From contig JBDRXL010000004.1 of the NCBI GenBank assembly GCA_039802865.1, positions 3,768 through 67,767 on the forward strand: DNA of 64,000 bases. The letters run 5' to 3'. The position numbers and the translations under genes are program-made. The stretch's first letter is position 1. Each line of letters begins with the position of its first letter. Shown in pieces: positions 1 to 62,068 of the stretch. The DNA comes from a candidate division WOR-3 bacterium (GTDB lineage: Bacteria > Hydrothermota > Hydrothermia > LBFQ01 > DSFT01). Under the pieces are notes generated by a model. That model searched no databases and was not told the DNA's origin. It saw nothing but the letters and a program-made list of their open reading frames with translations.

Positions 1-634
<634 letters not shown>

Positions 635-654
<20 letters not shown>

Positions 655-3106: not shown

Positions 3107-3127
3107 AGAAAATTTTAAAGTATATAA

Positions 3128-3141: not shown

Positions 3142-3151
3142 TTTAAAATTT

Positions 3152-3511: not shown

Positions 3512-3530
3512 AATTTAAAAATTTTAAAGC

Positions 3531-4547
3531 CTACTTCTTCAATCTTATTAAAGAGCCAAGACCTATTATAGTAATTAAAATTAAAAATGCTATATAAACA
3601 AAGCTTATATATGGCAGTATATAACTTAAAATACTCAATATAGCAACAAGAATAAAGCCCAAGAAGTAAGCTAAAATATCATTTCTTACAATAAGCTTTC
3701 CAATAATCACAAATCCATATGTAAAGCTAATTAAAAATAGCAAGAGGATAAAAACTATATAAAAAGGAATTGTTAAAATAAGCAAAACAAAGATAATTAT
3801 TAAAATTATTAAATAGAAAGGTAGCAAAAGTATTCCAACTATTGTAATTATAAGCAATATAATTCCAACAACAAGAGCTAATACAAAAATTGAAATAAAA
3901 ACTGAAACAAAAATCGGATATACAAGAAGAATAATTAAAAGTGCAACTAATCCAAAAATTACAGCTTTTAAAGGATTTTCAACAAATCTATCAAATAATC
4001 TTCCTATTATTCCTTTTGAAATTAAGAAAACCAAAAACGTAAAAATAAAAAGTAATAAAAGTGAAATTATCAAGCTAACTTTTTCATCTACTTCCCATTT
4101 ATAAATTTTCTTTCCATTTTCTTCCTCTTTTTCTTTCTCCTTTAGAACAAAGGGCAAAGAACTTACAGAAATAACGGATTTTTCACCTTCAATTCTCCCT
4201 TCATTTTCAAAATTAACAGCTATAAGGGATAAATCACCATCTATATAACCATTTTCTTTGATTATTACATCAATTCCAATAAGTGAAGCATCTCCTTTTA
4301 TTGTATCATCTATTAGAATTTTTTTAGAGACTACAGAAAGATCTCCTTCTATCTTTCCAAAAACAACACAACTATCCCCAAATACAGATACAGAACCATC
4401 TATTTTACCTTTATCAAGAACAATAAGAGAGCCCTTTTCAACTGAAACATCACCCTTGACAAAACCAGAAATTACAACATCCTGTCCTTTTACCTTTATA
4501 TATCCTGATGTATCAGAAATTTCTAAAAATGAAAGTAAAAAGAACAT
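3531..4547 (-). CDS. Bactofilin-like (polymer-forming beta-helix repeat) domain fused to a multi-TM membrane domain
   Basis: N-terminal half has repeated GDxSVxxGS / IDGDLS beta-helix-like repeats (bactofilin/CcmA type). C-terminal half has about 6 hydrophobic helices. Confidence 0.45.
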   Translation of the reverse strand: MFFLLSFLEISDTSGYIKVKGQDVVISGFVKGDVSVEKGSLIVLDKGKIDGSVSVFGDSCVVFGKIEGDLSVVSKKILIDDTIKGDASLIGIDVIIKENGYIDGDLSLIAVNFENEGRIEGEKSVISVSSLPFVLKEKEKEEENGKKIYKWEVDEKVSLIISLLLLFIFTFLVFLISKGIIGRLFDRFVENPLKAVIFGLVALLIILLVYPIFVSVFISIFVLALVVGIILLIITIVGILLLPFYLIILIIIFVLLILTIPFYIVFILLLFLISFTYGFVIIGKLIVRNDILAYFLGFILVAILSILSYILPYISFVYIAFLILITIIGLGSLIRLKK

Positions 4548-4549
4548 AG

Positions 4550-4565
4550 CTTTAAAATTTTAAAG
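4550..4565. promoter_or_regulatory. Perfect palindrome CTTTAAAATTTTAAAG occupying the 20-bp divergent intergenic region; putative bidirectional extended -10 promoter
   Basis: Lies between the ATG of the minus gene (4547) and the ATG of trmFO (4568). Same element recurs upstream of most operon-initial genes. Confidence 0.55.
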
Positions 4566-4567
4566 AT

Positions 4568-5878
4568 ATGAAAGATAGAGTAATTGTAATAGGGGGAGGA
4601 TTAGCGGGAAGTGAGGCAGTATATCAACTTGCTAAAAGGGGTGTAAATGTTATATTATATGAGATGCGCCCGGTGAAAAATACACCTGTTCATAAAACTG
4701 ATAAATTAGGAGAATTAGTATGCTCAAATTCCTTAAAATCAACAGATATTTATAATGCAAATGGACTTTTAAAATATGAATTAAAATTGCTTGATAGCCT
4801 GATATTAAAAGCAGGAGAATATAGTAGAATTGATAATTCAATTGCTCTTGTAGTTGATAGAGAATTATTTTCAGATTATATTACAAATACTATTAAAAAG
4901 TTTGATAATGTGAAAATTATAAGAGAAGAAGTTGTAGAAATACCAAAAGATGAAATTGTAATAATTGCAACAGGTCCTTTAACATCTGAAAAATTAGCAG
5001 AAGATATTAAGAAATTAACAGGAGAAGATTATTTATCATTTTATGATGCGGTATCTCCTATTGTAGATGGTGATACATTAAACTATGAAAAACTATTTTG
5101 GGCAGATAGATTTTCAGAAGAAGGAAATTATTTAAATGCTCCTTTAAATAAGGAAGAATATGAAATTTTTGTAAATGAATTAATAAAAGCAGAAAAAATA
5201 GAACTTCATGATTTTGAAAAAGATATAAAATTTTTTGAAGGATGCCTTCCTATTGAAGAAATGGCTAAAAGAGGAATAGATACATTAAGATATGGTCCAA
5301 TGAATCCTAAGAATTTAATTGATCCAAGAACAGGTAAAGAGCCTTATGCGGTTGTTCAATTAAGACCAGAAAATAAAGATAAAACTGCATTTTCCTTAGT
5401 AGGTTTTCAAACTCAAATGAAGTGGAATGAGCAAAAAAGAGTTTTTAGATTAATACCTGGTCTTGAAAATGCTGAATTTTTAAGATATGGTGTAATTCAT
5501 AGAAATACTTTTATAAAATCACCATTAATTCTAAAAGAAACTTTACAAATGAGAAAATATGAGAATATATTCTTCGCTGGTCAGATAACAGGGGTTGAAG
5601 GTTATATGCCTTCTTGTGCAACAGGTTTAATTGCAGGTATAAATGCTTATAGGTTATTAAAAAATAAAAAAACCATTTACCCAAGCAGACATACAATGAC
5701 TGGAGCATTATTATATTATATAACTCATGAAAATCCAAAATACTTCCAACCTATGAATGCAAACTTTGGATTATTTGTAGATATACCAAAGCATTTAAAG
5801 GGAAAAAATAAGAAGGAGTTTATTATTCAAAGAGCAAAAATGGAATTTGAAAAATTTTTAAAAGAACTATCTGAATAA
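4568..5878 (+). CDS. trmFO: Methylenetetrahydrofolate--tRNA-(uracil54-C5)-methyltransferase TrmFO (Gid)
   Basis: N-terminal VIVIGGGLAGSEA FAD fold and the TrmFO-specific LVCSNSLKS region. 436 aa is typical length. Confidence 0.9.
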   Translation: MKDRVIVIGGGLAGSEAVYQLAKRGVNVILYEMRPVKNTPVHKTDKLGELVCSNSLKSTDIYNANGLLKYELKLLDSLILKAGEYSRIDNSIALVVDRELFSDYITNTIKKFDNVKIIREEVVEIPKDEIVIIATGPLTSEKLAEDIKKLTGEDYLSFYDAVSPIVDGDTLNYEKLFWADRFSEEGNYLNAPLNKEEYEIFVNELIKAEKIELHDFEKDIKFFEGCLPIEEMAKRGIDTLRYGPMNPKNLIDPRTGKEPYAVVQLRPENKDKTAFSLVGFQTQMKWNEQKRVFRLIPGLENAEFLRYGVIHRNTFIKSPLILKETLQMRKYENIFFAGQITGVEGYMPSCATGLIAGINAYRLLKNKKTIYPSRHTMTGALLYYITHENPKYFQPMNANFGLFVDIPKHLKGKNKKEFIIQRAKMEFEKFLKELSE

Positions 5879-6866: not shown

Positions 6867-6899
6867 CCAAAATTTTAAAACCTAGGCTTTAAAATTTTG
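6867..6899. promoter_or_regulatory. Two copies of the TTTAAAATTTT palindrome in the 40-bp divergent mltG/OFOR intergenic region
   Basis: CCAAAATTTTAAAACC (toward mltG) and GGCTTTAAAATTTTGAGTT-ATG (toward 6904). Confidence 0.5.
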
Positions 6900-8676: not shown

Positions 8677-8694
8677 GGGCAAGAGCGCCCCTAT
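8677..8694. terminator. Bidirectional hairpin AGGGGCAAGAGCGCCCCT between convergent genes
   Basis: 6-bp GC stem AGGGGC/GCCCCT. It overlaps the stop codons of 6904..8676 (+) and 8691..10148 (-). Confidence 0.45.
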
Positions 8695-10148
8695 CTTATG
8701 ATAATTTTATCTTCAAAATTATTTGACTTTATAAAATAAATTCCAGATTTTAAGTTCAATTGATAATTCCCTTCTTTATATGAAATAAGCTTCTCTCCAT
8801 TTGCTCTATAAATTGTAAATGGAACCTTTGAACTTATAATAACTTTATTTGTTTGATATTTAATACTATATGGTTTCTCTTTATTTATTATTTCCTCAAG
8901 AACAGAAAGCGTAGTTGTAGAGGTATAACTATAATATGTATCACCTGTATTACCATCCCTATAATCATTTGCCCAACTTGTGTAAATTTTTCCATTATCA
9001 ACAATCCATCCATTATAATCATGACCCAAAGGATTCTCACTAAATGGATAATTCACTGAGCTAACTCTTTGAGGAGCACTAAAACTCTGCCCCCAATTAT
9101 TTGAAATTGCCCAATATGTAGCCCATGTTCCTAAGGTAAATGGAGAACAAGAACTATAAGAGCTAATCCTTCCCTGCCATTGAGCAAAAATTTTATCTCC
9201 AGAACTTGCAAGCATTGGAAGAATTTGTTGTGTCCCCCCACCACTTGATGCAATGGGATAAGTTTTTAAAGTACTTCCACCTGTCCAAACAGCAACTCTT
9301 GCTTTACAATTACCATCCACATAAGATATTGCAACTTTACCATTGCTTGCAGTTATATGATCATGTATCTTTGCTGGTCTTTGATAATTTGGACAAGTTG
9401 TATTGGAACCAAAACTAAATCCAGTTTCAGCAATAAATTGGAAACTACTCCCACTATTTGTGCTTCTTAAAAATCCAACATATATAATCCCATTATTTGA
9501 TTGTGAAAAGTCGTTATAAGACATATATATATTACTTCCATCCTTTGCCCAATATCCAACAGTAGAAGGCCAGTTGGTATAACCTACTTGGGTCCATGTA
9601 TTTCCATTATCCGTTGATTTGTAAATTACTAAATTATAACCTCCAAACTTATCAGTTGTGAAATTTGCTAAAATTGTATTATTTCCAATAGCTAAAAGCC
9701 AAGGTTTATCCTTAAAATATGCCCAGTTATCGTTTGGACCCAACGTACTACAAGACCAGTTAGAAGCAGTTGTGCAACCACTCCCGCTTGCGCATCTACA
9801 AAAATAAACTTCACCCTTAGTATTATTAGGATTACAATATATCATTCCAGCAAAAAATAATATATTTGGATTATCTGGTTGAATGGCAATTGCAGGGTCC
9901 CCTATCCAACAATTTGAATTAGGTGAAGTATAGCGTATGTTACCAGCAAATGTATTTCCACCATCAAAACTCATTGCTAAATAGTTACCAGCATATTGAG
10001 AACCATCACCTCTTATCCAAGTTACTAGAACTGTATTTCCTACTTTCTTAACATCAGTCTCTGTATTTTGCATACAAGAGCTCATAGAATAATTGCTCAC
10101 TTTTATTTCACTTCTAAAAGGTGAATCCAAAACTAAAAATAATAACAT
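8691..10148 (-). CDS. BNR/Asp-box repeat (sialidase-like) secreted protein with T9SS C-terminal sorting domain
   Basis: Asp-box motifs STDNGNTW, SFDGGNTF and STNSGSSF. C-terminus ...GNYQLNLKSGIYFIKSNNFEDKIIIR matches the Por_Secre_tail pattern. Classical SD AGGGGGTG upstream of the ATG. Confidence 0.6.
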   Translation of the reverse strand: MLLFLVLDSPFRSEIKVSNYSMSSCMQNTETDVKKVGNTVLVTWIRGDGSQYAGNYLAMSFDGGNTFAGNIRYTSPNSNCWIGDPAIAIQPDNPNILFFAGMIYCNPNNTKGEVYFCRCASGSGCTTASNWSCSTLGPNDNWAYFKDKPWLLAIGNNTILANFTTDKFGGYNLVIYKSTDNGNTWTQVGYTNWPSTVGYWAKDGSNIYMSYNDFSQSNNGIIYVGFLRSTNSGSSFQFIAETGFSFGSNTTCPNYQRPAKIHDHITASNGKVAISYVDGNCKARVAVWTGGSTLKTYPIASSGGGTQQILPMLASSGDKIFAQWQGRISSYSSCSPFTLGTWATYWAISNNWGQSFSAPQRVSSVNYPFSENPLGHDYNGWIVDNGKIYTSWANDYRDGNTGDTYYSYTSTTTLSVLEEIINKEKPYSIKYQTNKVIISSKVPFTIYRANGEKLISYKEGNYQLNLKSGIYFIKSNNFEDKIIIR

Positions 10149-10651: not shown

Positions 10652-10653
10652 AT

Positions 10654-10725
<72 letters not shown>

Positions 10726-10790
10726 AATAACTTTGATAATTTTAAGGCATAAATTTTAAAAATTCAAAAAACATTAAATAAATATCAAAA

Positions 10791-10805
10791 GGCTTTAAAA
10801 TTTTT
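10791..10805 (+). promoter_or_regulatory. GGCTTTAAAATTTTT element 3 nt upstream of the valS ATG
   Basis: Same motif family as the other operon-initial genes. A second copy in reverse orientation (10746-10765) faces the tRNA-Phe 5' end. Confidence 0.45.
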
Positions 10806-15886: not shown

Positions 15887-15927
15887 CTCTATGCTTTAAA
15901 ATTTTAAGTAGTTAGTAGTATCATTGT

Positions 15928-23455: not shown

Positions 23456-23460
23456 ATTGA

Positions 23461-23497
23461 AATTTTAAAGCTTATTGAAACTTTAAAATTTTAAAAC
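23461..23497. promoter_or_regulatory. Paired palindromic elements in the 43-bp divergent intergenic region (M1 peptidase / trxB)
   Basis: AAATTTTAAAGCTTAT reads toward the minus gene as GCTTTAAAATTTCAAT-ATG. CTTTAAAATTTTAAAACT-ATG reads toward trxB. Confidence 0.5.
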
Positions 23498-24423: not shown

Positions 24424-24440
24424 GCTTTAAAATTTCAATT
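24424..24440 (+). promoter_or_regulatory. GCTTTAAAATTTCAATT element immediately upstream of the sufS ATG (TAAAAT then 7 nt then ATG)
   Basis: The identical 17-mer precedes the lysS ATG at 53798-53814 and the 21464..23455 ATG. Confidence 0.5.
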
Positions 24441-26030: not shown

Positions 26031-26246
26031 TTACCTCCTTATAAGAAAGAAAATTAGAGTAAAAATCAAACTTAATATAATTGAAATTAAAATTGATGTG
26101 CCAAGCGGAAAGTAAAATGTAAAATTATCTTTTTGAATTAATATATCACCTGGCAGTTTAAACTTTGGAAAAAGAATAATTAAAAAACCAAATATAAGAA
26201 AAACAATTCCAATTATAATAAATAATTTTCCAAGTTCTGAAAACAT
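26031..26246 (-). CDS. DUF2905-family small membrane protein
   Basis: 71 aa with two TM segments and a central PGDI...FYFPLG signature. Promoter palindrome CTTTAAAATTTAAAATT-ATG directly upstream overlaps the stop of the upstream gene. Confidence 0.55.
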   Translation of the reverse strand: MFSELGKLFIIIGIVFLIFGFLIILFPKFKLPGDILIQKDNFTFYFPLGTSILISIILSLIFTLIFFLIRR

Positions 26247-26250: not shown

Positions 26251-28314
26251 TTAAATTTTAAAGTATGAAAAAACTATTGATAAAGCAATTCCAAATAACC
26301 AAAAAGATAAAAATAATACGAACTTTTTATAGTCATAATGAAACTTTACTAAATGCTTACCCTTTGGAACTTCTATTGCCATAAATGTCCAATTCGCTCT
26401 TAAAATTTTAACTTCCCTATTATCAAGCTTTGCTTTCCAATAAGGATAATAACTATTACTTAAAACTAAAATTGCATCTTTATCACTTTCATATTCAATA
26501 AGAATTTCATTTGTTGTATATTTTAATATCTTAACAGGTTTATAAAACTCATTTAAATTATAAGTTTTTTTAGGCTCATCATTTAAATATACACACTCAT
26601 GCACTTTTAAATTTTTTACATTTGAAAAGAAAGTAGAACTATCTTTAATTACTTGTGCACAATAAACTAAATAAGCTCTTGGTAAATAATCTTTCAATTC
26701 TACAAAACCACTATCAGTTATATAATACTTAACATTTGCCATTTTTAATAAATTTTCAAACCCTTCTTTTCTCTTTACAATATGATCATAAAACTCTACA
26801 TAATATTTTGAAACAAGTGGATCATAACCTTCCGTTAATTCTATTTTATTTATATTACCCGAATTTCTTGGCAATATGATTCCTTTATAAAACCTTGCAT
26901 TTACCCTATATTCTCCTAAGTTATTAGCTTTTAAATATTCTACAAAATAAGGCTTATAATAGCTTTCAACATCACTATATCTTTCAATTTTAAAATAGCT
27001 ATTAAAGTTAATGTATATATCCAAAAATACCAAAATAGCAAGTGAATATAAAAATAAGTTTTCCTTTAAAATACCTTTTACAAAACCATAACTTAAAACA
27101 TACAATAATGCTAAAATTATTAAAAATTTAAAAATTTCTTCTCCATTTTCAGTTTGAGTTTTAAAGAAAAAGAAGAAAAGAAAAACAAGAATAATGAAAA
27201 GAACAATATAATTTAAAAGTCTTAAATTTTTATTTTTTAAGACATAATTTATTCCATAACAAGAAAGAATTGCTACTATAACTGGCATTAAAAATAAGGC
27301 TCTTGCAGGTGCTCTTAAACCTTTAATAACTCCACTCTCATATAAAACTTTTAAAATAGGATTTTGATCACCAAGAGCTAAAAAGAATAAAATTATTGAA
27401 GAAATAATTAAAGATAAAACAAATTTATTTTTATAGCTTGATAATGCTCCAATTATTGAAAAAATAATTCCAATTAAGGAAAAGTAAAATGTCATCTCTG
27501 TATAAAAATAATAAGGTCCAGCAGAATAATTATCATTCATAATTGAGCCATAAAAATTAGGTATAATAAAAGTAATAATTCTATCAAGATGAAATGACAT
27601 TTCAAGTAAAAATTTCAAATCACTTTCAACTCTCTTGCTTATATTAAATAAGTCAATACCTTGAAAATAATAAGAAAGAACAAATGGCATAAAAACAATT
27701 AAAAAGATAATAAATTTTAAAAAATACTTTCTATCTTCAAGAATTTTAAAAAAGTAAATAAAGAAGATAATTATAAGTAAATAAAATGGTTTTTGAGGAT
27801 GAACAGTAAAAGCAAATCCCATAAAAAGTGCAGAAATATGAGGTTTATCCAAAAAATAAAGAATTAATGGAATAAGTGGTATAAAATCATAAGTGTGTGG
27901 GTGAATTATTGTTAAAATATAACAACTTGAAAATGTATATATAAGGGCACTTATAACAGCAATTTCACTTTGAAATTTTAATTTATTTTTTACATAAAGA
28001 TAGAAAAATATAAGAGATAACAAATAGCTTAAACTTACAAGGATATTAAAAACATAAAGGGAATTATTAAAAATACCAATGAAGTTCCTTAAAATAAAAA
28101 TTGGATTTAATTCAAATAATTGAATATTGTTAATAAATGGAAGTGTAGAAAATAAATAAGGATTAAAAGCTGGAAAATTTCCATTTTTTAGATTTTCTGT
28201 AAGGAAATAGAACATTGGATAAAACTCTTCAATTGCATCATCAAATAAAGGCTTTCCTTGAAATAGTGGAAAGAAAAATAGAAACCAAAAAATAAGAAGT
28301 ATAAGATAATACAT
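26251..28314 (-). CDS. YfhO-family polytopic membrane protein (putative glycosyltransferase/flippase-like)
   Basis: 687 aa, more than 12 TM helices N-terminally and a C-terminal soluble beta-rich domain. Architecture is typical of YfhO. Confidence 0.5.
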   Translation of the reverse strand: MYYLILLIFWFLFFFPLFQGKPLFDDAIEEFYPMFYFLTENLKNGNFPAFNPYLFSTLPFINNIQLFELNPIFILRNFIGIFNNSLYVFNILVSLSYLLSLIFFYLYVKNKLKFQSEIAVISALIYTFSSCYILTIIHPHTYDFIPLIPLILYFLDKPHISALFMGFAFTVHPQKPFYLLIIIFFIYFFKILEDRKYFLKFIIFLIVFMPFVLSYYFQGIDLFNISKRVESDLKFLLEMSFHLDRIITFIIPNFYGSIMNDNYSAGPYYFYTEMTFYFSLIGIIFSIIGALSSYKNKFVLSLIISSIILFFLALGDQNPILKVLYESGVIKGLRAPARALFLMPVIVAILSCYGINYVLKNKNLRLLNYIVLFIILVFLFFFFFKTQTENGEEIFKFLIILALLYVLSYGFVKGILKENLFLYSLAILVFLDIYINFNSYFKIERYSDVESYYKPYFVEYLKANNLGEYRVNARFYKGIILPRNSGNINKIELTEGYDPLVSKYYVEFYDHIVKRKEGFENLLKMANVKYYITDSGFVELKDYLPRAYLVYCAQVIKDSSTFFSNVKNLKVHECVYLNDEPKKTYNLNEFYKPVKILKYTTNEILIEYESDKDAILVLSNSYYPYWKAKLDNREVKILRANWTFMAIEVPKGKHLVKFHYDYKKFVLFLSFWLFGIALSIVFSYFKI

Positions 28315-28818: not shown

Positions 28819-28843
28819 AAAATTTTAAAGCCTTAAAATTTCA
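28819..28843. promoter_or_regulatory. Double palindrome AAAATTTTAAAGCCTTAAAATTTCA between the tRNA-Glu 5' end and the divergent TTG-initiated M1 peptidase gene
   Basis: On the minus strand it reads GGCTTTAAAATTTTCAAACTT, ending 8 nt before the mature tRNA 5' G. On the plus strand CCTTAAAATTTCAAA ends directly before the TTG. Confidence 0.55.
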
Positions 28844-32443: not shown

Positions 32444-32461
32444 ACTTTAAAATTTTAAACT
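32444..32461. promoter_or_regulatory. 18-bp divergent intergenic region consisting only of the palindrome ACTTTAAAATTTTAAACT
   Basis: ATG of the minus gene at 32443 and TTG of the plus gene at 32462. Reads as xTTTAAAATTTTAAAxT on both strands. Confidence 0.5.
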
Positions 32462-32809: not shown

Positions 32810-34627
32810 ATGATAACTTTAATTATAAGCTTTGAAAGTTTAAAAATATGTGTGTTTGATAAAAAAACAAATGAACCGCTTGAAGCGGTGCAGATTTATA
32901 CATCTTTAACCTTTACATTTACTGACCATAATGGTTGTGCTAATGTAAAAATGAAAGATAATGATAGCTTAATAGTTTATAGGATTGGATATAAAACTTT
33001 AACACTTAAAAGAGAAGAAATTTCAGATAAAATTTATCTTGAAAGTTCTGGAATTACATTAAAAACTGTAAATGTGATATCAAAAGCAATTAAAGTAAAA
33101 GAAATAAAAAATATCAAAGAAGAAGTTGAAAATATAAATTTTGGAAATGTTATAAATAAGCCTATTATTTCTGGATTTAATAGAGATAAATATAATATTA
33201 TTGTTGATGGTGCATTTTTAAATGACCAAAGCGATTATTTAGACCATCCTATTGTAATTGATCCTGATTTAGTAAATAATATCTTTATTGGAAATTCCCA
33301 AAATAATGCTTTATTTGGTTTAAATTCAATAGCAGGTGGAATTGATTTAAAATTATTTGATATTGAAGAGAAAAATAAATTTTCTTTGTTTAGTGAATAT
33401 TTATCACAAAATAATAGAATATCTGCCGGAATAAAAAATAATAGAAATTTTGGAGATTTTTCATATAAATTTGGTATAAAGGGTTCAATTAGTCAAAATT
33501 TTGTAAATCCAGAAATAGAAAATACTTCTGATAGCTCATTTTATTCTATTTTATCAATCAAATATAAAGAATTTCAAATAGGTAATTACTTTAGCTTTAT
33601 AAATTATGGTGTTATTAATTCTGATGGAGGGGCAAGAAATTTATTTCTAAATCCAAGATTAAGTTATAAGAGCTTTATATTTGACTTTCAATACTCAGAT
33701 CAAATGGAATTGGGACATATTCATGGATTGTCCATAAAACATAGTAATGAGGGAACAAGGCTAAAATTATATACTGCACAAGGTATATACAACTCAGATA
33801 AATTCTATATTAATTTAATGTTAAATCGCTTTGAGGGAAGTGGGGAAGAAACTTCAAATTACAATAGATTTTTATTTACAATGTTATATTCAAACAAACT
33901 TAAAGACATTTTAAACTACTCTTTCTCTATAATTCCTAACTATTCAGATTTTGATAATAAATTAAAAGTTGGCTTTTCATTTTTAATTAATAAACCTATA
34001 AAAGATTTTAGTTTTACACTTTCACAATCAATTCAATATCCCTCACTTCAACAACTCTCATTTACAGGTATTCATGAAACTGCCAATAGATATGAAATTG
34101 CTAATGAAAACCTAAAAGAAGAATATTCATTTAATTTTTCTATAGATTATAAGCATTCTTTAAACTTCATATCTCTTTCAATCTCACCTTCAATAAACTA
34201 TATCAAAAACTTCATCCTTCTAACCCCATTAGATACTATCATACAAGGTTATAAAGCTTATACTTTTGAAAACAGAGATGTTTATATTCTAAATCTCAAT
34301 TCAGATATCTTTCTTATCTTTAAGAAAAACTTATTTATCAATTTAAATATCCTATATTCACAACCATCCATAAACATCCCCTTCTATTCAAAACCCCAAA
34401 TAAAAACAAAACTAACTTATAAGTTTTTAGAGTTATACCATAGGGTCATATTCGCAGATTCTATATATTCAATTTTCTCAACAGGTTTAAATTACTCTAT
34501 AAAGTTTATTAAGTCCAATCTCTTAATAGATAACATATTTAATGAGTATTACATTGAACCGACTAATCCCTTTGGAACACCAAATCCTTATAGAAATATA
34601 TCATTGAAGTTAAATTTTGATTTTTAA
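32810..34627 (+). CDS. TonB-dependent receptor-like outer-membrane protein (carboxypeptidase-regulatory-like N-domain plus plug plus barrel)
   Basis: N-terminal CarbopepD_reg-like strand pattern, plug-like GGIDLKLFD, and C-terminus ending ...LKLNFDF. Classical SD AAGGAGGT 7 nt upstream of the ATG. Confidence 0.45.
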   Translation: MITLIISFESLKICVFDKKTNEPLEAVQIYTSLTFTFTDHNGCANVKMKDNDSLIVYRIGYKTLTLKREEISDKIYLESSGITLKTVNVISKAIKVKEIKNIKEEVENINFGNVINKPIISGFNRDKYNIIVDGAFLNDQSDYLDHPIVIDPDLVNNIFIGNSQNNALFGLNSIAGGIDLKLFDIEEKNKFSLFSEYLSQNNRISAGIKNNRNFGDFSYKFGIKGSISQNFVNPEIENTSDSSFYSILSIKYKEFQIGNYFSFINYGVINSDGGARNLFLNPRLSYKSFIFDFQYSDQMELGHIHGLSIKHSNEGTRLKLYTAQGIYNSDKFYINLMLNRFEGSGEETSNYNRFLFTMLYSNKLKDILNYSFSIIPNYSDFDNKLKVGFSFLINKPIKDFSFTLSQSIQYPSLQQLSFTGIHETANRYEIANENLKEEYSFNFSIDYKHSLNFISLSISPSINYIKNFILLTPLDTIIQGYKAYTFENRDVYILNLNSDIFLIFKKNLFINLNILYSQPSINIPFYSKPQIKTKLTYKFLELYHRVIFADSIYSIFSTGLNYSIKFIKSNLLIDNIFNEYYIEPTNPFGTPNPYRNISLKLNFDF

Positions 34628-35616: not shown

Positions 35617-35632
35617 AAAATTTTAAAGCATA
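35617..35632 (-). promoter_or_regulatory. GCTTTAAAATTTTCAAG element 27 nt upstream of an SD-bearing leader
   Basis: Minus-strand reading is GGGTATGCTTTAAAATTTTCAAGTTAGCTATGCTAACAGAAGGAGGTAAGATGATG. The leader contains the small palindrome TTAGCTATGCTAA and a canonical SD, unlike most genes here. Confidence 0.45.
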
Positions 35633-40784: not shown

Positions 40785-40806
40785 AATGAAATTTTAAAGC
40801 TTATTA

Positions 40807-43082: not shown

Positions 43083-43588
43083 TCAATCCTCCATATTATA
43101 GCTTCTCTATTTGGTAATTTTGGTTCTATCTTAATCGCTGGATAGCCAAGCAGCAAAATAGCAAAAAACTCATATTCCTGAGGATTTATATTAAATTCAT
43201 TATATATATAATCCTTAAAATTCTCATTCAACTGAAATATCACCTCAGAAACAATACCATAACTTATTGCTTGAATTCTCATATTATATATAGCAGCAGA
43301 AGTGGAACCATATTGAGTTAATTGATTATATTCTTCTTTAACTTTTGCACAAAAGCATAAAATTATAGTATTAGCTTTTTTGTCTAATTTTTTTGATATG
43401 CTTAAAGCTTTATCTCCTGTAATTGCTATGAATTTCCAAGGTTGTGGGGGATTTAAACCATAAGGTGCATATGTTCCAGCTTTTAATATATTTTCTATAA
43501 TATCCTTAGGAATGGGCTTTAAAGCAAACTTATCAGTATTCTTCAATAGTCTGTTTAGCTCATATAAAATTTTACCTTCCATAGGCAT
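43079..43588 (-). CDS. Divergent nitroreductase-fold protein (third member of the operon)
   Basis: GLNPPQPWKFIAI and TIILCF segments are typical of the nitroreductase superfamily. Promoter element GCTTTAAAATTTTAATGCCT-ATG upstream. ATGA overlap with the next gene. Confidence 0.55.
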   Translation of the reverse strand: MPMEGKILYELNRLLKNTDKFALKPIPKDIIENILKAGTYAPYGLNPPQPWKFIAITGDKALSISKKLDKKANTIILCFCAKVKEEYNQLTQYGSTSAAIYNMRIQAISYGIVSEVIFQLNENFKDYIYNEFNINPQEYEFFAILLLGYPAIKIEPKLPNREAIIWRIE

Positions 43589-43608
43589 TAAAATTTTAAA
43601 GCTATCAT

Positions 43609-48502: not shown

Positions 48503-48559
48503 AATCAAAATTTTAAAGTATTCAATTTAATTCTTTTTCAACTCTTTTTATATCCGCCT

Positions 48560-48745
48560 CAACCATTATTTCCCAAAATCACCTAACAAAATATCTACCT
48601 CCGCAGGTCTATAAAATTTTCCCAAACAATATCAAAACCAACAATTCTAAAAACTAATTCAACAAATTCTAATAATACTAGAATTACCACTTTCAAGAAG
48701 AAACTTTGCTAAATAAGCTCCATCTTGCCCTCTAATTCTAGTAAA
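48560..48745 (-). pseudogene. gmd: Decayed remnant of GDP-mannose 4,6-dehydratase (gmd): N-terminal and C-terminal fragments with an internal deletion
   Basis: Minus-strand translation gives ...NFTRIRGQDGAYLAKFLLESGNSSIIRIC* (compare Gmd [21 protein letters not shown]) and YRPAEVDILLGDFGK* (compare Gmd [21 protein letters not shown]). No start codon and multiple stops. The promoter palindrome at 48742-48753 still precedes it. Confidence 0.5.
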
Positions 48746-48748
48746 ATT

Positions 48749-49840
48749 TTAAAGTTTTACAACTTCTTCAAAAACTTTTAAATGTTCCTTTGCTGTTTTT
48801 TCCCAACTAAAAATTTTTATTCTTTCAAAACCCTTATTAATTAAATATTGTCTTAAACTATTATCTGTTAATAATTTATAAATGCTTTCAGAAATACTTT
48901 CTATACTATAAGGGTCAAAATAATATGCAGCATCACTACAAATTTCAGGCAAACTTGAAACATTTGATATTGCGGTAGGAACACCACAAGCCATAGCTTC
49001 CAAAGGTGTAAAACCAAAACCCTCATACAAAGATGGAAGAATAACTAATAATGAAGCATTATAGTATTTAATAAGCTCATTATCAGAAGCTCTTGTTATT
49101 TCTATAATTTCTTGTTCTAAATTTAAGCTTTTCTTTAATCTATCAATTTCATCTTCTTTTTTAAATTTTTCTCCAATAATTACAAGTTTTAAATTTTTAA
49201 AATCACTTTTTATTTTTAAAAATGCCTTAACTAATCTTTCTAAATTTTTATGTGGTTTTCTATTTCCAACATAAAGAATATAATCTCCAAGATTTTTTTC
49301 CTTTTTAAATAACTCTATTTCCTCCTTTGAAATTGGCTTGAAAACATCTGATATTCCCCAATATATTACTCTTATTTTGCTTTCTATTCTTGGATAAAAA
49401 TTTAAAATATCCTTAGCGGTAAAATTTGAATTTGTAATAATAATTTTTGACTTCTTTAAGGCTCTTTTTAAAACAATTTTTGCAGACTTTACTTTAAGTT
49501 TATTAAAAAATTTAGGAAATTTAAATTGAGTTAAATCATGAACTGTGACAATACTATTTTTAGGCAATAAAAAAGGAACATTATATTGAGGAAAATGAAA
49601 CACATCAAAACTTTTTTCAAGTTTTTTTAAAAGAATACTACCTTCAATTTGCTCATAAATAGAATAAATAGGAGAATTGTAAGGTATATAATTTTTAAAT
49701 ATACTTTGCTTTAATACTTCAACATACCCCCCTGCAAAAACTTCAACATCTGACATTTTTACAATTTCACTATAAACACCTTCTATATATCTACCAATTC
49801 CAGACTTTTTATAAAATCTTGCATCTAAAAAAATTCTCAT
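48749..49840 (-). CDS. Glycosyltransferase family 4 (GT-B fold)
   Basis: C-terminal EGFGFTPLEAMACGVPTAISNVSSLPE (E-x7-E GT4 motif). Confidence 0.8.
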   Translation of the reverse strand: MRIFLDARFYKKSGIGRYIEGVYSEIVKMSDVEVFAGGYVEVLKQSIFKNYIPYNSPIYSIYEQIEGSILLKKLEKSFDVFHFPQYNVPFLLPKNSIVTVHDLTQFKFPKFFNKLKVKSAKIVLKRALKKSKIIITNSNFTAKDILNFYPRIESKIRVIYWGISDVFKPISKEEIELFKKEKNLGDYILYVGNRKPHKNLERLVKAFLKIKSDFKNLKLVIIGEKFKKEDEIDRLKKSLNLEQEIIEITRASDNELIKYYNASLLVILPSLYEGFGFTPLEAMACGVPTAISNVSSLPEICSDAAYYFDPYSIESISESIYKLLTDNSLRQYLINKGFERIKIFSWEKTAKEHLKVFEEVVKL

Positions 49841-49842: not shown

Positions 49843-50508
49843 TTAAAACTCCTTTGATATTACAACTACAAATTCCCCCTTTTCCTTTATTTTATCTTTA
49901 ACTTCACTTAAATTTCCATATATATACTCTTCAAAAGCTTTTGTCATTTCCCTTGCTATAAAAACTTTTCTATTTCCAAAAACTTCTAAAATTTCCTCTA
50001 AAAATTCTTTAATTTTATAAACTGAAACATAAATTACAATAGAACCTTCAAAATTTTTATATTTTAAAAGCTCATTTATTCTCTTACTTTTTTTCTTTGG
50101 TAAAAATCCCAAAAATAAAAATTTATCAGTTTCAAGACCACTAACACTTAAAGCAGAAATAACCGCAGAAGGTCCAGGAATAGGTATAACTTCTATATTA
50201 TTTTCTCTACAGGTTCTTACCAATCTATATCCAGGGTCTGAAATTAAAGGAGTTCCAGCATCTGATATTAAACCTATATTTTTTCCTTCTTCTAATAGTT
50301 TTAATACTTCTTTTACTCTTCTTTGTTCATTTCCTTCAAAATATGATAACAACTTTTTATTCTTTATATCATAATAATCTAATAAAATTTTCGCTCTTCT
50401 TGTATCTTCACATAAAATTATATCTACAAACTTTAATGTTTCAATTGCCCTTATTGTAATATCCTTTAAATTCCCAATTGGTGTAGCAATGATAAATAAT
50501 TTCCCCAT
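49843..50508 (-). CDS. rsmI: 16S rRNA (cytidine1402-2'-O)-methyltransferase RsmI
   Basis: MGKLFIIATPIGNLKDITIRAIETLKFVDIILCEDTRRAKILL, a tetrapyrrole-methylase-fold RsmI signature. Confidence 0.85.
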   Translation of the reverse strand: MGKLFIIATPIGNLKDITIRAIETLKFVDIILCEDTRRAKILLDYYDIKNKKLLSYFEGNEQRRVKEVLKLLEEGKNIGLISDAGTPLISDPGYRLVRTCRENNIEVIPIPGPSAVISALSVSGLETDKFLFLGFLPKKKSKRINELLKYKNFEGSIVIYVSVYKIKEFLEEILEVFGNRKVFIAREMTKAFEEYIYGNLSEVKDKIKEKGEFVVVISKEF

Positions 50509-50511: not shown

Positions 50512-50527
50512 AAGCTTTATAATTTTA
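50512..50527. promoter_or_regulatory. AGCTTTATAATTTTAG element in the 24-bp divergent rsmI/50533 intergenic region (contains a perfect TATAAT)
   Basis: Reads GCTTTATAATTTTAGGGCT-ATG toward 50533 and CCCTAAAATTATAAAGCTTGCG-ATG toward rsmI. Confidence 0.45.
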
Positions 50528-52005: not shown

Positions 52006-53804
52006 GCACTATTTTAAATTTTTTAATTTCTTATAGTTGTGAATTGGTAATGGTTCCAATGAGGGATAGTGTTAAGTTAGCTACTGAAATTTGTAAGCCT
52101 TGGCCCTTTTTCCCACCATACTTAGTTATTCTTGTAAGAACACCATATGATAGAAATGGTGTTGGATTAAATTACTTTAAACCATTTATAACAGATTATA
52201 AAAGATATGTTTTAGTAATTCAAAGTTTAAGAGGATTCCAAGGAAGTGAAGGTAATCCTTCTGTATTTGCTACTGATGGTTGGGGTCAGCTTCAAGATGG
52301 CTATGATGCTATAAATTGGATAATAAGTCAAAGTTGGGCAAGAGATAGTGTTTGCGGTTCTTGGTTTTCCGCAATGGGTATAACTCAATACTTACTTTCT
52401 GGAACAGGACATCCTAATTATATATGTGCAGTTCCTTTTGTAGGTGCTCATAGTTTATATCATTATGCAGCATTTCAGGGAGGAGAATTTCGCAAACAAC
52501 TTGTTGAAAATTGGCTAAATGGCTTGAATGTTGGATATTTAATTGATTCTGTTGCTTCACATCCTTCCTATGATACATTTTGGAAATTTTTAAATCTTGA
52601 AGAAAGATTAAATTATGTAAAAATTCCTATGCTTCACTTTGGAGGATGGTTTGATATATTTATTGAAAGTCAAGTAGATATATTCAATAAATTGCATTTT
52701 TCTGGTATGCCAGGAGCAAAAAATAAACAAAAACTCATAATTGGTCCTTGGACTCATTTAGGGTTTGGACAAGCAAATCAAGGGGACCTAGTATTTCCAA
52801 ATGCAATTATAGATTTTCTAGACTTTGATAATGATTTTTATATGGCAATAGGGAGTTGGTATGATTGTCATTTAGCTGGAAAACAAAGTGCTTGTGATTA
52901 TATAAATAGTTTTCCACCTGTTAAATTTTATATTATTGGATTAAATGAATGGGCTTATTCTGACACATTTCCACCAAGAGGAATTTATTATAGGAATTTT
53001 TATTTAAGAAATGATGGTTCAATTTCACAAAACTATCCAACTGAAAATACAGGTTATTCACAATATATATATAATCCTTACGACCCAACACCAACCATTG
53101 GAGGAAATGAGTTATTAGACCCAACTCAAGCAGGTCCAAAAGATCAAAGTCCTTTAATAAATAGAAGCGATGTGATAGTATTTCAAACTCCACTCTTAAC
53201 TGATACATTATTAGTAATAGGGACAATTTATGCAAAACTATATATTTCATCTGATAGACTTGATACAGATTTTTCGGTTAGACTTGTAGATGTATTCCCA
53301 GATGGTAGGAAAATTTTAGTTACTGATGGTATAATAAAGGCAAGATATAGATATGGATTTGAGCAAGAAGTTTTATTAACACCTAATCAAATTGACTCAG
53401 TAATTGTAAGAGTTGGAACAACCGCCTGGGCATTCTTACCAGGACATAGACTTATGGTAATTATTTCATCTGCAAATTATCCAAGATTTGAGGCAAATCC
53501 AAATAATGGAGGACCATTTAAAAGGGATGATCCTAATAAACTTATAGCAACAAATAGAATTTATCATAATAGCCACTATCCTTCATATATAAGCCTTCCC
53601 ATATATCAAACTACTGATATTAAGGAAGCAAAGGAAGAAAAAATTTATTATATAAAAGGCAATAGGTTGTGCACTAAAAAAATGGCAAATTTATATTCTG
53701 CAAATGGACGCTTTTTGAAGAAAATAAATGGATGTGAAAAGTTAAATAAGGGGGTATATATTTTGAAAGTTAAAAACAAAACATATAAAGTAATAATGCT
53801 TTAA
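52002..53804 (+). CDS. CocE/NonD-family (S15, X-Pro dipeptidyl-peptidase-like) hydrolase with T9SS C-terminal sorting domain
   Basis: Alpha/beta-hydrolase core with the nucleophile elbow GSWFSAMG. The C-terminal beta-sandwich PDGRKILVTDGIIKARYRYG is typical of CocE/NonD. Tail ...KGVYILKVKNKTYKVIML. ATGA overlap with the previous cargo gene. Confidence 0.65.
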   Translation: MSTILNFLISYSCELVMVPMRDSVKLATEICKPWPFFPPYLVILVRTPYDRNGVGLNYFKPFITDYKRYVLVIQSLRGFQGSEGNPSVFATDGWGQLQDGYDAINWIISQSWARDSVCGSWFSAMGITQYLLSGTGHPNYICAVPFVGAHSLYHYAAFQGGEFRKQLVENWLNGLNVGYLIDSVASHPSYDTFWKFLNLEERLNYVKIPMLHFGGWFDIFIESQVDIFNKLHFSGMPGAKNKQKLIIGPWTHLGFGQANQGDLVFPNAIIDFLDFDNDFYMAIGSWYDCHLAGKQSACDYINSFPPVKFYIIGLNEWAYSDTFPPRGIYYRNFYLRNDGSISQNYPTENTGYSQYIYNPYDPTPTIGGNELLDPTQAGPKDQSPLINRSDVIVFQTPLLTDTLLVIGTIYAKLYISSDRLDTDFSVRLVDVFPDGRKILVTDGIIKARYRYGFEQEVLLTPNQIDSVIVRVGTTAWAFLPGHRLMVIISSANYPRFEANPNNGGPFKRDDPNKLIATNRIYHNSHYPSYISLPIYQTTDIKEAKEEKIYYIKGNRLCTKKMANLYSANGRFLKKINGCEKLNKGVYILKVKNKTYKVIML

Positions 53805-53814
53805 AATTTCAATT

Positions 53815-55290
53815 ATGATAAACAAACCAGAGGAATTTTTTATTAGATTAAAGAAAGTAGAAGAATTAAGAGAATTAGGAATTGAACCATACGCTTATAA
53901 ATTTCATAAAAATTTTAGTGCTAAATATCTAAAAGAAAATTTTGAAAAATTACAAAATGAAGAAATAAAATTTGCTGGAAGAATTATGAGTGTAAGGATT
54001 ATGGGTAAAGCCTTATTTGCAACATTAAGAGATGAAACAGAAGATATACAAATTTATATTAAAACAGGTGAAACTGAAAATCCATTTAATATAGATAATG
54101 TCGCGAAAGCATTTGACAAATACATTGATATTGGAGATATTATAGGAGTGGAAGGAAAATTATTTAAAACTCATACAGGAGAAATAACTATTTTTGTAAA
54201 AAAATTTCAAATACTTTCTAAATGTCTATTACCTCTTCCTGACAAATGGCATGGATTAAAAGATATAGAGCTTCAATATAGAGAAAGATATTTACATTTA
54301 ATTGTAGATAGAGAAGCAATCGAAACATTTAAAAAGAAATCCAAAATTATTAAATTAACAAGAGAATTTTTTGAAAATAACGGATTTATTGAAATAGATA
54401 CTCCAATTCTTCAACCAATATATGGAGGAGCAAATGCTACACCTTTTGAAACATATTCAAATGCCCTTGATACAAAATTATATTTAAGAATAGCCAATGA
54501 ATTATATTTAAAGCGATTAATTGTAGGAGGATATGAAAGAGTTTATGAAATAATAAAAAATTTTAGAAATGAAGGCATAGATAAAAGTCATTATCCTGAA
54601 TTTTTAGCCTTAGAAGCTTATTTAGCATATGCTGATTATTATGATATGATGGAAATTAGCGAAAATTACTTAAACTTTATTGTTAAAAATGTATTTAATA
54701 GTGAAGAAATTGAATATCAAGGAAATATAATATCATTTAAACTACCTTTTAAAAGAATCTCATATATAGAAGAGCTAAAAAATGCACTTGGATTTAATCC
54801 CATTGAAGCTGATATTGAATTTTTAAGAGAAAAGGCAAAAAGATATATTGAAAATGTTGAAAAAATGAGCAAAGGAAAAATTATAGATAAATTATTTGAT
54901 GAACTTATAGGGAAAAATTTAATTCAACCTACAATTGTAATGGATCACCCCATTGAAACTTCTCCACTTGCAAAAATTCATAGGAAATATAAGGATAGAG
55001 TTGAAAGATTTGAGATATATTTAGCAGGATTTGAAATTGTAAATGCATTTAGTGAGTTAAATGATCCTATTGAACAAAGAAAAAGATTTGAAGAACAAAT
55101 AAAATTAAGAGCAATGTATAACGATAAGGAACTACCAGAAGAAATAGATGAAGACTTTTTAAATGCTCTTGAATATGGTATGCCTCCTACGGGTGGATTA
55201 GGATTTGGGCTTGATAGAATTTGTATGATTTTATTAAATAAAACTTCAATAAGAGATGTTATTCCATTTCCTCAATTAAAACCTAAATGA
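53815..55290 (+). CDS. lysS: Lysine--tRNA ligase (class II)
   Basis: N-terminal OB-fold anticodon-binding domain and class II motifs 1-3 (FRNEG, GGLGFGLDR). The GCTTTAAAATTTCAATT element overlaps the stop codon of the upstream gene. Confidence 0.95.
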   Translation: MINKPEEFFIRLKKVEELRELGIEPYAYKFHKNFSAKYLKENFEKLQNEEIKFAGRIMSVRIMGKALFATLRDETEDIQIYIKTGETENPFNIDNVAKAFDKYIDIGDIIGVEGKLFKTHTGEITIFVKKFQILSKCLLPLPDKWHGLKDIELQYRERYLHLIVDREAIETFKKKSKIIKLTREFFENNGFIEIDTPILQPIYGGANATPFETYSNALDTKLYLRIANELYLKRLIVGGYERVYEIIKNFRNEGIDKSHYPEFLALEAYLAYADYYDMMEISENYLNFIVKNVFNSEEIEYQGNIISFKLPFKRISYIEELKNALGFNPIEADIEFLREKAKRYIENVEKMSKGKIIDKLFDELIGKNLIQPTIVMDHPIETSPLAKIHRKYKDRVERFEIYLAGFEIVNAFSELNDPIEQRKRFEEQIKLRAMYNDKELPEEIDEDFLNALEYGMPPTGGLGFGLDRICMILLNKTSIRDVIPFPQLKPK

Positions 55291-55886
55291 TTTTAAACTT
55301 AAAATTGGACATATTTAGTAAGTTTGAAGATAATGAATTTATTATAAAAAATGATGAAGTTGGAATATTTTTATTTATAAATGGGAAAAATTACATAATT
55401 GGAAAGTTTTCAAAAACTTATAACTTATTTTCTATTTTAAATGAACTATTTGAACTTTATGAAGAAATTGAAATTTTTGATAGTTATGAAATTAGCCAAG
55501 AAATTATAGAATTTATAAAAAATTCAGAAGAAGGAACATATATTAAAAACGGAGAAATTTTCAAAATGGAAATTCCTAAAATGGAATTAAAATTGAACTT
55601 TAATTATAGAGTTCAAATTCTTTGTGGAAATGATACCGCCCATATTTATGTTGAAGAACCCCTTGACTTAAACTTTAAAGAGTTAATGAATAGTTTTAAA
55701 AACTGCCAAGTTTATATAAATCCCATAAGCTTAAATGTAAAGTGTAATGAAACATCAATTATTTTATTTAAAGATGGAAAAGCAATTATTAGAGAAAAGG
55801 ATATAAGCATAGAAAGAGCAAAACAAATATATGAAAAAATAATTTTTAAGAACTTTTGCTTTAAAATTTTAAATGAAACACTTTGA
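55287..55886 (+). CDS. Hypothetical protein
   Basis: 199 aa with no recognisable motifs. Translationally coupled (ATGA) to lysS. Confidence 0.3.
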   Translation: MILNLKLDIFSKFEDNEFIIKNDEVGIFLFINGKNYIIGKFSKTYNLFSILNELFELYEEIEIFDSYEISQEIIEFIKNSEEGTYIKNGEIFKMEIPKMELKLNFNYRVQILCGNDTAHIYVEEPLDLNFKELMNSFKNCQVYINPISLNVKCNETSIILFKDGKAIIREKDISIERAKQIYEKIIFKNFCFKILNETL

Positions 55887-58490: not shown

Positions 58491-58515
58491 TAAATTTTAA
58501 AGCTTTAAAATTTTA
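58491..58515. promoter_or_regulatory. Overlapping double palindrome TAAATTTTAAAGCTTTAAAATTTTA filling the 32-bp divergent intergenic region
   Basis: Minus reading is GCTTTAAAATTTACAAT-ATG (56504..58486). Plus reading is GCTTTAAAATTTTAACT-ATG (58519). Confidence 0.55.
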
Positions 58516-62051: not shown

Positions 62052-62068
62052 GTTTAAAATTTTAAAGC
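62052..62068. promoter_or_regulatory. Palindrome GTTTAAAATTTTAAAGC in the 24-bp divergent nadC/alr intergenic region
   Basis: ATG of nadC at 62046 and TTG of alr at 62071. Confidence 0.5.

Follow-up and report, generated by a model that had tools for sequence, protein, structure and literature searches.

The 20-nt spacer at 4548-4567 of the 64-kb stretch of WOR-3 DNA analysed here (hereafter the window) reads AGCTTTAAAATTTTAAAGAT and separates two divergent genes, 3531..4547 on the minus strand and 4568..5878 on the plus strand. It contains a short oriented motif, with the core CTTTAAAATTT, that recurs directly upstream of most transcription unit starts in the window. This motif is very probably a -10-centred, -35-less housekeeping promoter of the sigma70 type, which would give mRNAs that are leaderless or have leaders of 0-5 nt. 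The palindrome that the spacer displays is a by-product, and the functional unit is asymmetric and oriented.

The analysis covered this one window together with about 90 kb from relatives. The window has 26.5% GC and is ~96.5% coding, with many overlapping genes and many intergenic spacers of 18-45 nt. Its gene content is bacterial (TrmFO, MltG/YceG, ValRS, LysRS, CysRS, XerC, HtrA), and proteins identical to those it encodes are found in several metagenome-assembled genomes (MAGs) or metagenome assemblies, including GCA_039802925.1 and ERZ4756919. Gene starts were taken from mechanically derived open reading frames (ORFs) of at least 90 amino acids (aa), from the independent gene calls of public assemblies, and from a few refinements.

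Position and Orientation of the Motif

Searching for the 16-mer palindrome with up to three mismatches gave 38 sites in the window, compared with 11.8 +/- 3.2 in shuffles. The signal sharpens when the unit is cut down from the 16-mer to the oriented 11-mer CTTTAAAATTT: the window holds 28 exact copies of it, where shuffles hold 1.59 +/- 1.12 and never more than 5. For 22 of these exact copies, a same-strand start codon or tRNA follows 0-12 nt after the motif end; this upstream zone takes up 0.6% of window positions, and 0.16 copies would be expected in it (binomial P = 2e-44). The motif is always co-oriented with its downstream target, and the spacing is short and fixed: with one mismatch allowed, the distance from the motif end to the start has a mode of 5 nt and lies between 2 and 8 nt in 25 of 30 copies. 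At the modal spacing the embedded hexamer TAAAAT ends ~7 nt before the start codon, and in most cases this distance is 4-10 nt. All 20 positions listed in the original prediction hold a copy, and two more, at 183-193 (-) and 55859-55869 (+), can be added to them. The copies and their targets are as follows.

4550..4560 (+): CTTTAAAATTT core, the focal copy; 7 nt before the trmFO ATG at 4568; overlaps the opposite copy by 6 bp
4555..4565 (-): core; 7 nt before ATG 4547 of a bactofilin-like 338-aa gene
183..193 (-): core; 4 nt before ATG 178 of an lpdA-like gene running off the window; inside the 3' end of 175..654
3110..3120 (-): core; 3 nt before GTG 3106, S49 peptidase/NfeD; preceded by a hairpin terminator at 3126-3143
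3519..3529 (-): core; 7 nt before ATG 3511 of a 119-aa gene
6870..6880 (-): core TTTTAAAATTT; 6 nt before TTG 6863, YceG/MltG
6887..6897 (+): core; 6 nt before ATG 6904, pyruvate:ferredoxin oxidoreductase-like
10737..10747 (-): degenerate copy CCTTAAAATTA; 11 nt before the mature 5' end of tRNA-Phe (10725)
10751-10761: second copy near tRNA-Phe, TTTTAAAATTT
10793..10803 (+): core; 5 nt before the valS ATG at 10809
15894..15904 (+): core; 23 nt before TTG 15928 of a 1692-aa ORF; the sole short-leader case
23460..23470 (-): core; 4 nt before ATG 23455, M1 peptidase
23481..23491 (+): core; 7 nt before ATG 23499, thioredoxin-reductase-like
24425..24435 (+): core; 5 nt before ATG 24441, class V aminotransferase, sufS-like
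26253..26263 (-): core; 6 nt before ATG 26246 of a 71-aa DUF2905 gene, 26034..26246
28820..28830 (-): core; 8 nt before the mature 5' end of tRNA-Glu (28811)
28831..28841 (+): core CCTTAAAATTT; 4 nt before TTG 28846, M1 peptidase; abuts the tRNA-Glu copy back to back
32445..32455 (+): core; 6 nt before TTG 32462 of an 88-aa ORF, 32462-32728
32450..32460 (-): core GTTTAAAATTT; 6 nt before ATG 32443 of a 370-aa gene
35618..35628 (-): core; 11 nt before ATG 35606, cupredoxin-like
40789..40799 (-): core; 4 nt before ATG 40784, S8 peptidase
43586..43596 (+): core CATTAAAATTT; 12 nt before ATG 43609, metallo-beta-lactamase fold
43591..43601 (-): core; 2 nt before ATG 43588 (8 nt before a second ATG), nitroreductase-like operon
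48508..48518 (-): core; 5 nt before ATG 48502, LapA-domain protein, 98 aa as independently called
48744..48754 (-): core; followed by ~225 nt with no ORF or Rfam match, a candidate RNA or long leader
50515..50525 (+): variant core CTTTATAATTT (TATAAT); 7 nt before ATG 50533
Opposite 50515..50525 (-): TAAAAT/TATAAA; serves gene 49843..50508
53799..53809 (+): core; 5 nt before the lysS ATG at 53815
55859..55869 (+): core; 3 nt before ATG 55873, SdpI family; wholly within the upstream ORF 55287..55886
58492..58502 (-): core; 5 nt before ATG 58486, Fe-S/CCG protein
58503..58513 (+): core; 5 nt before ATG 58519, phosphoglucomutase family; abuts the previous copy back to back
62052..62062 (+): core GTTTAAAATTT; 8 nt before TTG 62071, alanine racemase
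62057..62067 (-): core; 10 nt before ATG 62046, nadC

Exact sense copies of CTTTAAAATTT are absent from gene interiors (59.8 kb), and the enrichment next to starts in the window is strong. Selection against sense copies within genes is not apparent, with 9 near-copies (at most one mismatch) observed and 7.9 expected. In eight equally AT-rich Firmicutes loci (112 kb), a single copy of CTTTAAAATTT was found, which is about the chance level. These loci served as negative controls only; they came from a TrmFO search of genome contigs that gave one relative and 79 Firmicutes loci.

Anatomy of the Motif

For the logo, 30 copies were aligned on the core, and the flanks played no part in copy selection. 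The consensus is A-n-G-C-T-T-T-A-A-A-A-T-T-T-(T)-(A)-(A), an oriented unit of 12-14 bases, and no sequence is conserved beyond ~14 nt in the 30 copies. The TA..AT frame is invariant (30/30), with TAAAAT as the hexamer in 29 copies and TATAAT in one. Conservation extends into the flanks: an A stands three bases before the C in 26/30 copies, the base directly before the C is G in 20/30 and otherwise A, and the C itself is present in 27/30. The T/A/A that follows the core is also conserved, and an A occupies logo positions +12/+13, 4-5 nt after TAAAAT, in 20-24 of the 30.

TAAAAT has the T-12, A-11, and T-7 of a sigma70 -10 element, and it stands, oriented, ahead of all kinds of unit, including stable RNA genes. 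If the hexamer is placed at -12 to -7, the other conserved bases fall at A-18, G-16, C-15, and TT-14/-13, with TTT downstream. No -35 element was detected in the 30 copies, where logo information is near zero between 35 and 5 nt ahead of the core. A scan of the window for canonical sigma70 promoters (TTGACA, a 16-18 nt spacer, TATAAT) returned 133 sites, against 131 in shuffles. The label "extended -10," which the original prediction had attached to the element, does not fit in its canonical TGn form: in place of TG at -15/-14 the copies have C (27/30) and T (28/30), with the conserved G at -16, so that G-16/C-15 followed by TT is found instead.

Transcription Units, Shine-Dalgarno Sites, and Start Codons

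The motif is found 2-12 nt upstream of 28 of the 33 protein-coding transcription unit starts (~85%). Both tRNAs and one candidate RNA carry it as well. Four units have no motif, namely 8691..10148 and 32810..34627, both with a strong Shine-Dalgarno site, and cysS and nadK. The fifth, the 1692-aa ORF (15928-21006, +), for which no Pfam match is on record, has no Shine-Dalgarno site and has the motif 23 nt upstream, the one clearly longer spacing among motif-associated genes. The cysS gene has neither motif nor Shine-Dalgarno site; its ATG lies 8 nt downstream of a GC-rich hairpin, GAGGGGCTATTTGCCCCTT (38141-38165, -), which is not followed by a T-run.

None of the 28 first genes next to a motif has a Shine-Dalgarno site, as had been predicted, and AAGGAGG-like sites are found at ~10 of 20 internal genes and at 3 leadered genes; the other internal genes overlap the preceding gene. 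The further claim that Shine-Dalgarno sites are confined to genes at 8691, 32810, and 35586 stands for the first two, but many internal operon genes have such sites as well, and a gene start at 35586 was not found.

The start codons are independently fixed, because the N-termini of several encoded proteins agree with them. TrmFO begins MKDRVIVIGGGLAGS and has its GxGxxG dinucleotide-binding motif at residues 9-14, and the N-terminus of ValRS aligns within 3 residues of those of 13 homologues from several phyla. The N-termini of the DUF2905 and lpdA-like proteins also fit the start codons used, with Pyr_redox_2 beginning at residue 7 of the latter. Independent gene calls match the starts used.

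The motif also pointed to starts that had not been recognised. Four exact copies, at 26253 (-), 183 (-), 32445 (+), and 48744 (-), at first seemed to have no target. The copy at 26253-26263 (-) predicted a 71-aa gene whose product matches DUF2905 (E = 2.4e-19, aligned from profile position 1), and the copy at 183-193 (-) correctly predicted the start of the lpdA-like flavoprotein gene. The DUF2905 gene was missed both by the ORF list, with its limit of at least 90 aa, and by the independent calls; its motif lies in the last codons of a YfhO-like gene, and the last codons of the DUF2905 gene itself overlap the Shine-Dalgarno site that serves OsmC, the gene after it. The copy at 32445 (+) precedes an 88-aa ORF (32462-32728, +) that has a TTG start and no Pfam match, and that occupies most of the 366 nt of supposedly intergenic DNA ahead of the Shine-Dalgarno-led gene at 32810. 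At LapA, the copy at 48508-48518 pointed to ATG 48502 as the start and not to TTG 48508, and the independent call (98 aa) agrees.

Divergent Gene Pairs

The original prediction took the unit to be a perfect palindrome. The unit is instead an oriented 11-14-mer, and symmetry arises only where copies on opposite strands overlap or abut, which they do in two registers. Sites within one mismatch of the 16-mer palindrome number only 7, with the focal site perfect, and 4 of the 7 are divergent spacers of 18-24 nt (4548-4567, 32444-32461, 43589-43608, and 62047-62070). At these four 18-24-bp spacers the plus- and minus-strand copies overlap by 6 bp and the hexamers by 2 bp, and the palindrome CTTTAAAATTTTAAAG results; a variant of this overlapping divergent arrangement is found at 50509-50532. 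Divergent spacers of 32-43 nt hold two separate copies, sometimes back to back (58492-58502/58503-58513 and 28820-28830/28831-28841), which gives a different symmetry register. Promoters that serve a single direction run on as CAATT, TTGTT, TCAT, and the like. The functional unit is asymmetric and oriented, and this argues against a dimeric operator. The original prediction's alternative of a dimeric DNA-binding protein is unsupported, as the symmetry is confined to overlapping or abutting copies of opposite orientation.

Conservation in Relatives

Relatives were picked via a ladder of ValRS homologues, and the surroundings of these genes were scanned. In L001, a MAG labelled "candidate division WOR-3 bacterium" whose TrmFO is 89% identical to that of the window, and in L088 (ValRS 75%, GC 30%), first-gene starts are preceded at 4-10 nt by the same CTTTAAAATTT, and the genes that bear it are non-orthologous to those of the window. 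In L001 the motif is also found ahead of a tRNA-Ser pair and of tRNA-Asn. Two more distant relatives, L089 and L092 (ValRS 59-61%, GC 52% and 47%), have a box of the form C-y-T-T-A-w-A-w-T-T at 5-10 nt from the start. Across these four loci (ValRS 59-84% or TrmFO 89% identity, GC 28-52%), the box TA[ATG]A[ATC]TT ends 1-10 nt before the start in 24 of 34 first genes, where chance would give at most 0.05 per gene, and 6 of the 34 have a Shine-Dalgarno site. In a sister group, L090, L091, and L093 (ValRS 51-53%, GC 38-39%; one labelled WOR-3), the box is found at 0 of 34 first genes and a Shine-Dalgarno site at 19 of 34. Because the box is kept at 28-52% GC and absent in a sister group of 38-39% GC, the architecture is a trait of one clade that is independent of base composition. 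The sites of the sister group are strong AAGGAGG sequences, and at a few of its genes, for example that of RNase R (L091 19049 and L093 19063), CCTTAAAATGATTAT still stands directly before the ATG.

tRNA Genes

Rfam finds only tRNA-Glu and tRNA-Phe in the whole window, and neither gene encodes CCA. Of the two copies that the original prediction cited in support, that of tRNA-Glu ends 8 nt upstream as had been described; at tRNA-Phe the copy is degenerate (CCTTAAAATTA) and ends 11 nt upstream.

Right after each tRNA comes a start codon that is in frame with the ORF downstream. A TTG at 28739-28737 abuts the discriminator base of tRNA-Glu (28740, -) and is in frame with an ankyrin-repeat ORF. 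Read from this TTG, the ankyrin protein would begin (M)RSLIFLILLVISC|NQ, a putative signal peptide of the lipoprotein type, and the signal peptide is lost if the independently called start at 28712 is used. Similarly, tRNA-Phe ends at 10654 (-), and two bases later an in-frame ATG at 10651 opens a 134-aa ORF. If the tRNAs are cut at the discriminator, leaderless mRNAs would be left in these two cases, much as in the tRNA punctuation of mitochondria. The likeness lies in an ORF start 0-2 nt after a tRNA 3' end, although this is a bacterium and only two cases are at hand. In L001, unlike the window's two tRNAs, tRNA-Asn is followed by a normal Shine-Dalgarno-led gene.

Proposed Mechanism

RNA polymerase with a sigma70-family factor would read TAAAAT as the -10 hexamer through T-12, A-11, and T-7. 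Bare TAAAAT occurs 401 times in the window (74% A+T genome); such an A/T hexamer is too unspecific in a genome of this composition, so additional G/C positions are plausibly needed. A-18, G-16, C-15, TT-14/-13, and the downstream TTT would supply that specificity and replace a -35 box. Judged by geometry, the transcription start would lie 7-8 nt past the hexamer, which is either the first base of the start codon or a position 1-5 nt ahead of it, and an mRNA that starts there has no leader to hold a Shine-Dalgarno site. Translation would begin from the 5' end of the mRNA, by analogy with mycobacteria and Deinococcus. Genes further down an operon rely on Shine-Dalgarno sites or on stop/start junctions that overlap, as their sequences show. 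Divergent genes 18-24 bp apart are served by opposite copies that overlap by 6 bp, and those 32-43 bp apart by copies placed back to back. The same promoter would drive the tRNA genes, before which it is found, and a 5' leader of 4-7 nt would be left for RNase P.

Weighing the Alternatives

The proposal of a -10 promoter with leaderless or very short-leader transcripts, made in the original prediction, is supported by each sequence-level test that was run: the orientation and spacing of the motif, its TAAAAT hexamer, its presence at tRNAs, the Shine-Dalgarno split, the start codons fixed by protein N-termini, and the relatives. Several points weigh against it. The whole reading rests on sequence geometry, from which sigma recognition, the exact start site, and 5'-end-dependent translation are predicted. 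Exact copies at 3141 (+), 13593 (-), 14431 (-), and 24233 (-) have no obvious target, and some starts (LapA, the 88-aa ORF, Ank) were refined with the motif in mind, although most were not. The conserved GC differs from the TG of the canonical extended -10. Five motif-adjacent genes start with TTG or GTG, and leaderless initiation elsewhere favours AUG or GUG (PMC4633059). Where the spacing is 7-12 nt, the leader would be a few nucleotides long and not strictly absent. Finally, the -10 register is assumed, and the conserved A found 4-5 nt after TAAAAT would fit a nearer start if the hexamer were TTTAAA.

These last points can be taken further. The motif may be a promoter without being strictly leaderless, with TTTAAA as the hexamer or with the start at the conserved A, so that leaders of 1-6 nt would arise and translation would depend on some other feature. 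The A at logo +12/+13 in 20-24 of 30 copies, the 7-12 nt spacings at 11 genes, and the TTG starts at four motif-adjacent genes all speak for this possibility, which we nevertheless regard as unlikely. A-11 and T-7 are required by all sigma70-type -10 elements, and TTTAAA has neither; at the modal spacing of 5, the ATG begins 8 nt after TAAAAT, a normal start distance; and leaders of 5 nt or less are counted as leaderless in the literature and are too short for a Shine-Dalgarno site. A more distant alternative, which has little probability, is that the motif acts in RNA, in transcripts starting further upstream, either as a non-Shine-Dalgarno enhancer in the 5' untranslated region that binds the ribosome or S1, as in Bacteroidetes ("group B"), or as an endonuclease processing site from which monocistronic mRNAs are released. 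An A/U-rich element that shares the orientation of its gene and stands just 5' of the start codon would suit such a role, and several copies lie within upstream coding sequence, which may be co-transcribed. The same motif, however, precedes tRNA genes and a non-coding stretch, and a terminator hairpin stands directly upstream of one copy. For the pairs with 18-24-bp spacers, the promoter of each gene would have to lie within the coding sequence of the other, and no other conserved signal is found. With at least ~15 bits, the motif is far above the specificity of S1 or RNase E, whose preferences are much looser. Internal operon genes also have no motif, whereas group B motifs precede all genes (PMC6028130).

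It is more improbable still that a dimeric global regulator or nucleoid protein uses the element as a palindromic operator. The perfect 16-bp palindrome at the focal site and the six further sites within one mismatch of it suggested such a protein. Yet those 7 sites are the only palindromic ones, 4 of them in the 18-24-bp divergent spacers; sites serving one direction are asymmetric; wider divergent spacers hold two separate copies in another register (e.g., 58492-58513); and a fixed orientation and 2-12-nt spacing are kept across unrelated housekeeping genes and tRNAs. Least probable of all is a dispersed repeat, similar to a repetitive extragenic palindromic (REP) element or a miniature inverted-repeat transposable element (MITE), or A/T-rich low-complexity sequence gathered in small intergenic spaces. 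Many near-identical short copies confined to intergenic DNA would give that appearance, but conservation ends after ~14 nt, orientation and distance are tied to genes, and copies also lie in the 3' ends of coding sequences exactly where a downstream gene starts. Moreover, the motif is conserved in function and not in position in relatives with 47-52% GC, and it is missing from the A/T-rich control genomes.

Comparison with Known Systems

Leaderless expression is a known mode, and the window is best read as a case of it in a new lineage and to an unusual extent. GeneMarkS-2 defines a group C of genomes in which first-gene starts have a Pribnow box at a distance of 6-8 nt and Shine-Dalgarno sites are found at other genes, with leaderless operons predicted to make up 25-50%; the group is concentrated in Actinobacteria and Deinococcus-Thermus (PMC6028130). 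In mycobacteria, about one quarter of transcripts are leaderless with an ordinary -10 element upstream, and a 5' ATG or GTG is necessary and sufficient (PMC4633059). For Deinococcus deserti, 167 of 262 are given as leaderless (PMC6028130, PMC4633059). The window resembles group C both in the distance of the -10 box from first-gene starts and in the Shine-Dalgarno split. It differs in lineage (a WOR-3 subclade), in the share of units (~85%), and in base composition (26% GC), and its consensus, the nearly invariant A-n-GCTT-TAAAAT-TTT, is much longer than TAnnnT. The classic leaderless cases are GC-rich. A literature search found no work that links WOR-3 with leaderless expression and nothing relevant on leaderless mRNAs in MAGs or on the 11-mer.

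Sigma70 promoters without a -35 element, including those of the extended -10 (TGn) type, are known from Epsilonproteobacteria and Mollicutes, for example. The window motif is similar in that it has no detectable -35 and has extra conserved bases directly upstream of the -10, but these are G-16 and C-15 followed by TT and not TG at -15/-14, and the TTT after the hexamer is fixed as well. The divergent pairs recall the bidirectional promoters of Warman et al., in which -10 elements overlap on opposite strands within a short, A/T-rich, symmetric sequence, with a preferred offset of 18 bp (A-11 pairs with T-7) and with offsets of 29, 23, 12, 10, and 7 bp also enriched (bioRxiv 10.1101/2020.01.31.928960). 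Opposite-strand overlap of -10 elements is seen at the four 18-24-bp spacers of the window, where the start sites are predicted ones. However, the predicted start-site offset at 4548-4567 is ~15 bp, which departs from the 18-bp preference, and in the window both predicted starts coincide with start codons and the entire intergenic region measures ~20 bp.

Bacteroidetes sigma-AB promoters have -7 TAnnTTTG and -33 TTTG and are accompanied by Shine-Dalgarno-less translation, and the lineage studied here is often placed near the FCB group. An A/T-rich motif in the -10 region with a T-run, serving genes without a Shine-Dalgarno site, is common to both. The window motif differs in that it precedes first genes only, with Shine-Dalgarno sites used internally, and in that -33 TTTG is absent. 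A sigma-AB promoter was accordingly rejected as a candidate: all 30 of the 30 copies have A as the fifth base, the eighth position lacks G, and the logo shows no signal upstream. An archaeal leaderless promoter of the TATA/BRE kind (group D, TATA ~22-26 nt upstream) was likewise rejected, as the spacing here is 2-12 nt and the gene content is bacterial.

A more far-reaching interpretation, which we put forward tentatively and think doubtful as a whole, is that in this WOR-3 subclade nearly all expression is leaderless and is driven by one -35-less promoter of ~14 nt with an unusual sigma specificity (G-16, C-15), with bidirectional regions of 20 bp and additional leaderless mRNAs made by tRNA excision. 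If so, this would be the most extreme leaderless bacterium described. The Shine-Dalgarno-using sister clade offers a natural contrast for a switch in initiation mode and for the accompanying changes in sigma factor and ribosome. If confirmed, the present reading would add a new, uncultured, AT-rich group at the phylum level to those with abundant leaderless expression, at frequencies above those published for bacteria. For annotation, the consequence is that starts will be misassigned and small genes overlooked in these genomes by gene callers that look for Shine-Dalgarno sites; the motif led to the discovery of the DUF2905 gene, a revised start for LapA, and a start for the ankyrin lipoprotein at odds with the independent call. 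For annotating transcription units in these MAGs, the near-invariant 14-mer is a ready promoter model.

Individual Copies and a Candidate RNA

The ~225 nt at 48519-48743 (-) follow a perfect motif copy, and a second copy stands just before LapA. The first 62 nt of this stretch can form a hairpin, TAGAATTA...TAATTCTA. The fold z-score of the 222-nt stretch after the copy at 48744 is -1.67, which is not significant, and Rfam at E <= 1 gave nothing credible on 48480-48780 or on 10100-10810. The stretch could be a small RNA or a long leader.

Among the copies without an obvious target, those at 13593, 14431, and 24233 are antisense within genes. More generally, antisense near-copies (at most one mismatch) are about twofold in excess in gene interiors, with 31 observed against 15.4 +/- 4.2 in codon-shuffled genes; exact antisense copies number 3, where 0.76 are expected, and near-copies are found, for example, at 16341-20998 in the 1692-aa ORF. 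Antisense promoters or dipeptide bias may account for this excess. The remaining copy, 3141-3151 (+), flanks the terminator hairpin AAGCCCCATCTGGGGCTT (3121-3151) and is directed into the 3' end of a gene on the minus strand; it could represent a relic or an antisense promoter, or belong to the stem of a bidirectional terminator. Directly upstream of the copy at 3110-3120, the hairpin terminator marks a transcript boundary, after which transcription is initiated again.

The dense packing of the window is also evident at single genes. The lpdA-like gene has an ATGA overlap with the gene upstream as well as a motif copy of its own (175-193), and the TAA stop codon of the S15 peptidase gene (53802-53804) provides the first three bases of the lysS -10 hexamer TAAAAT.

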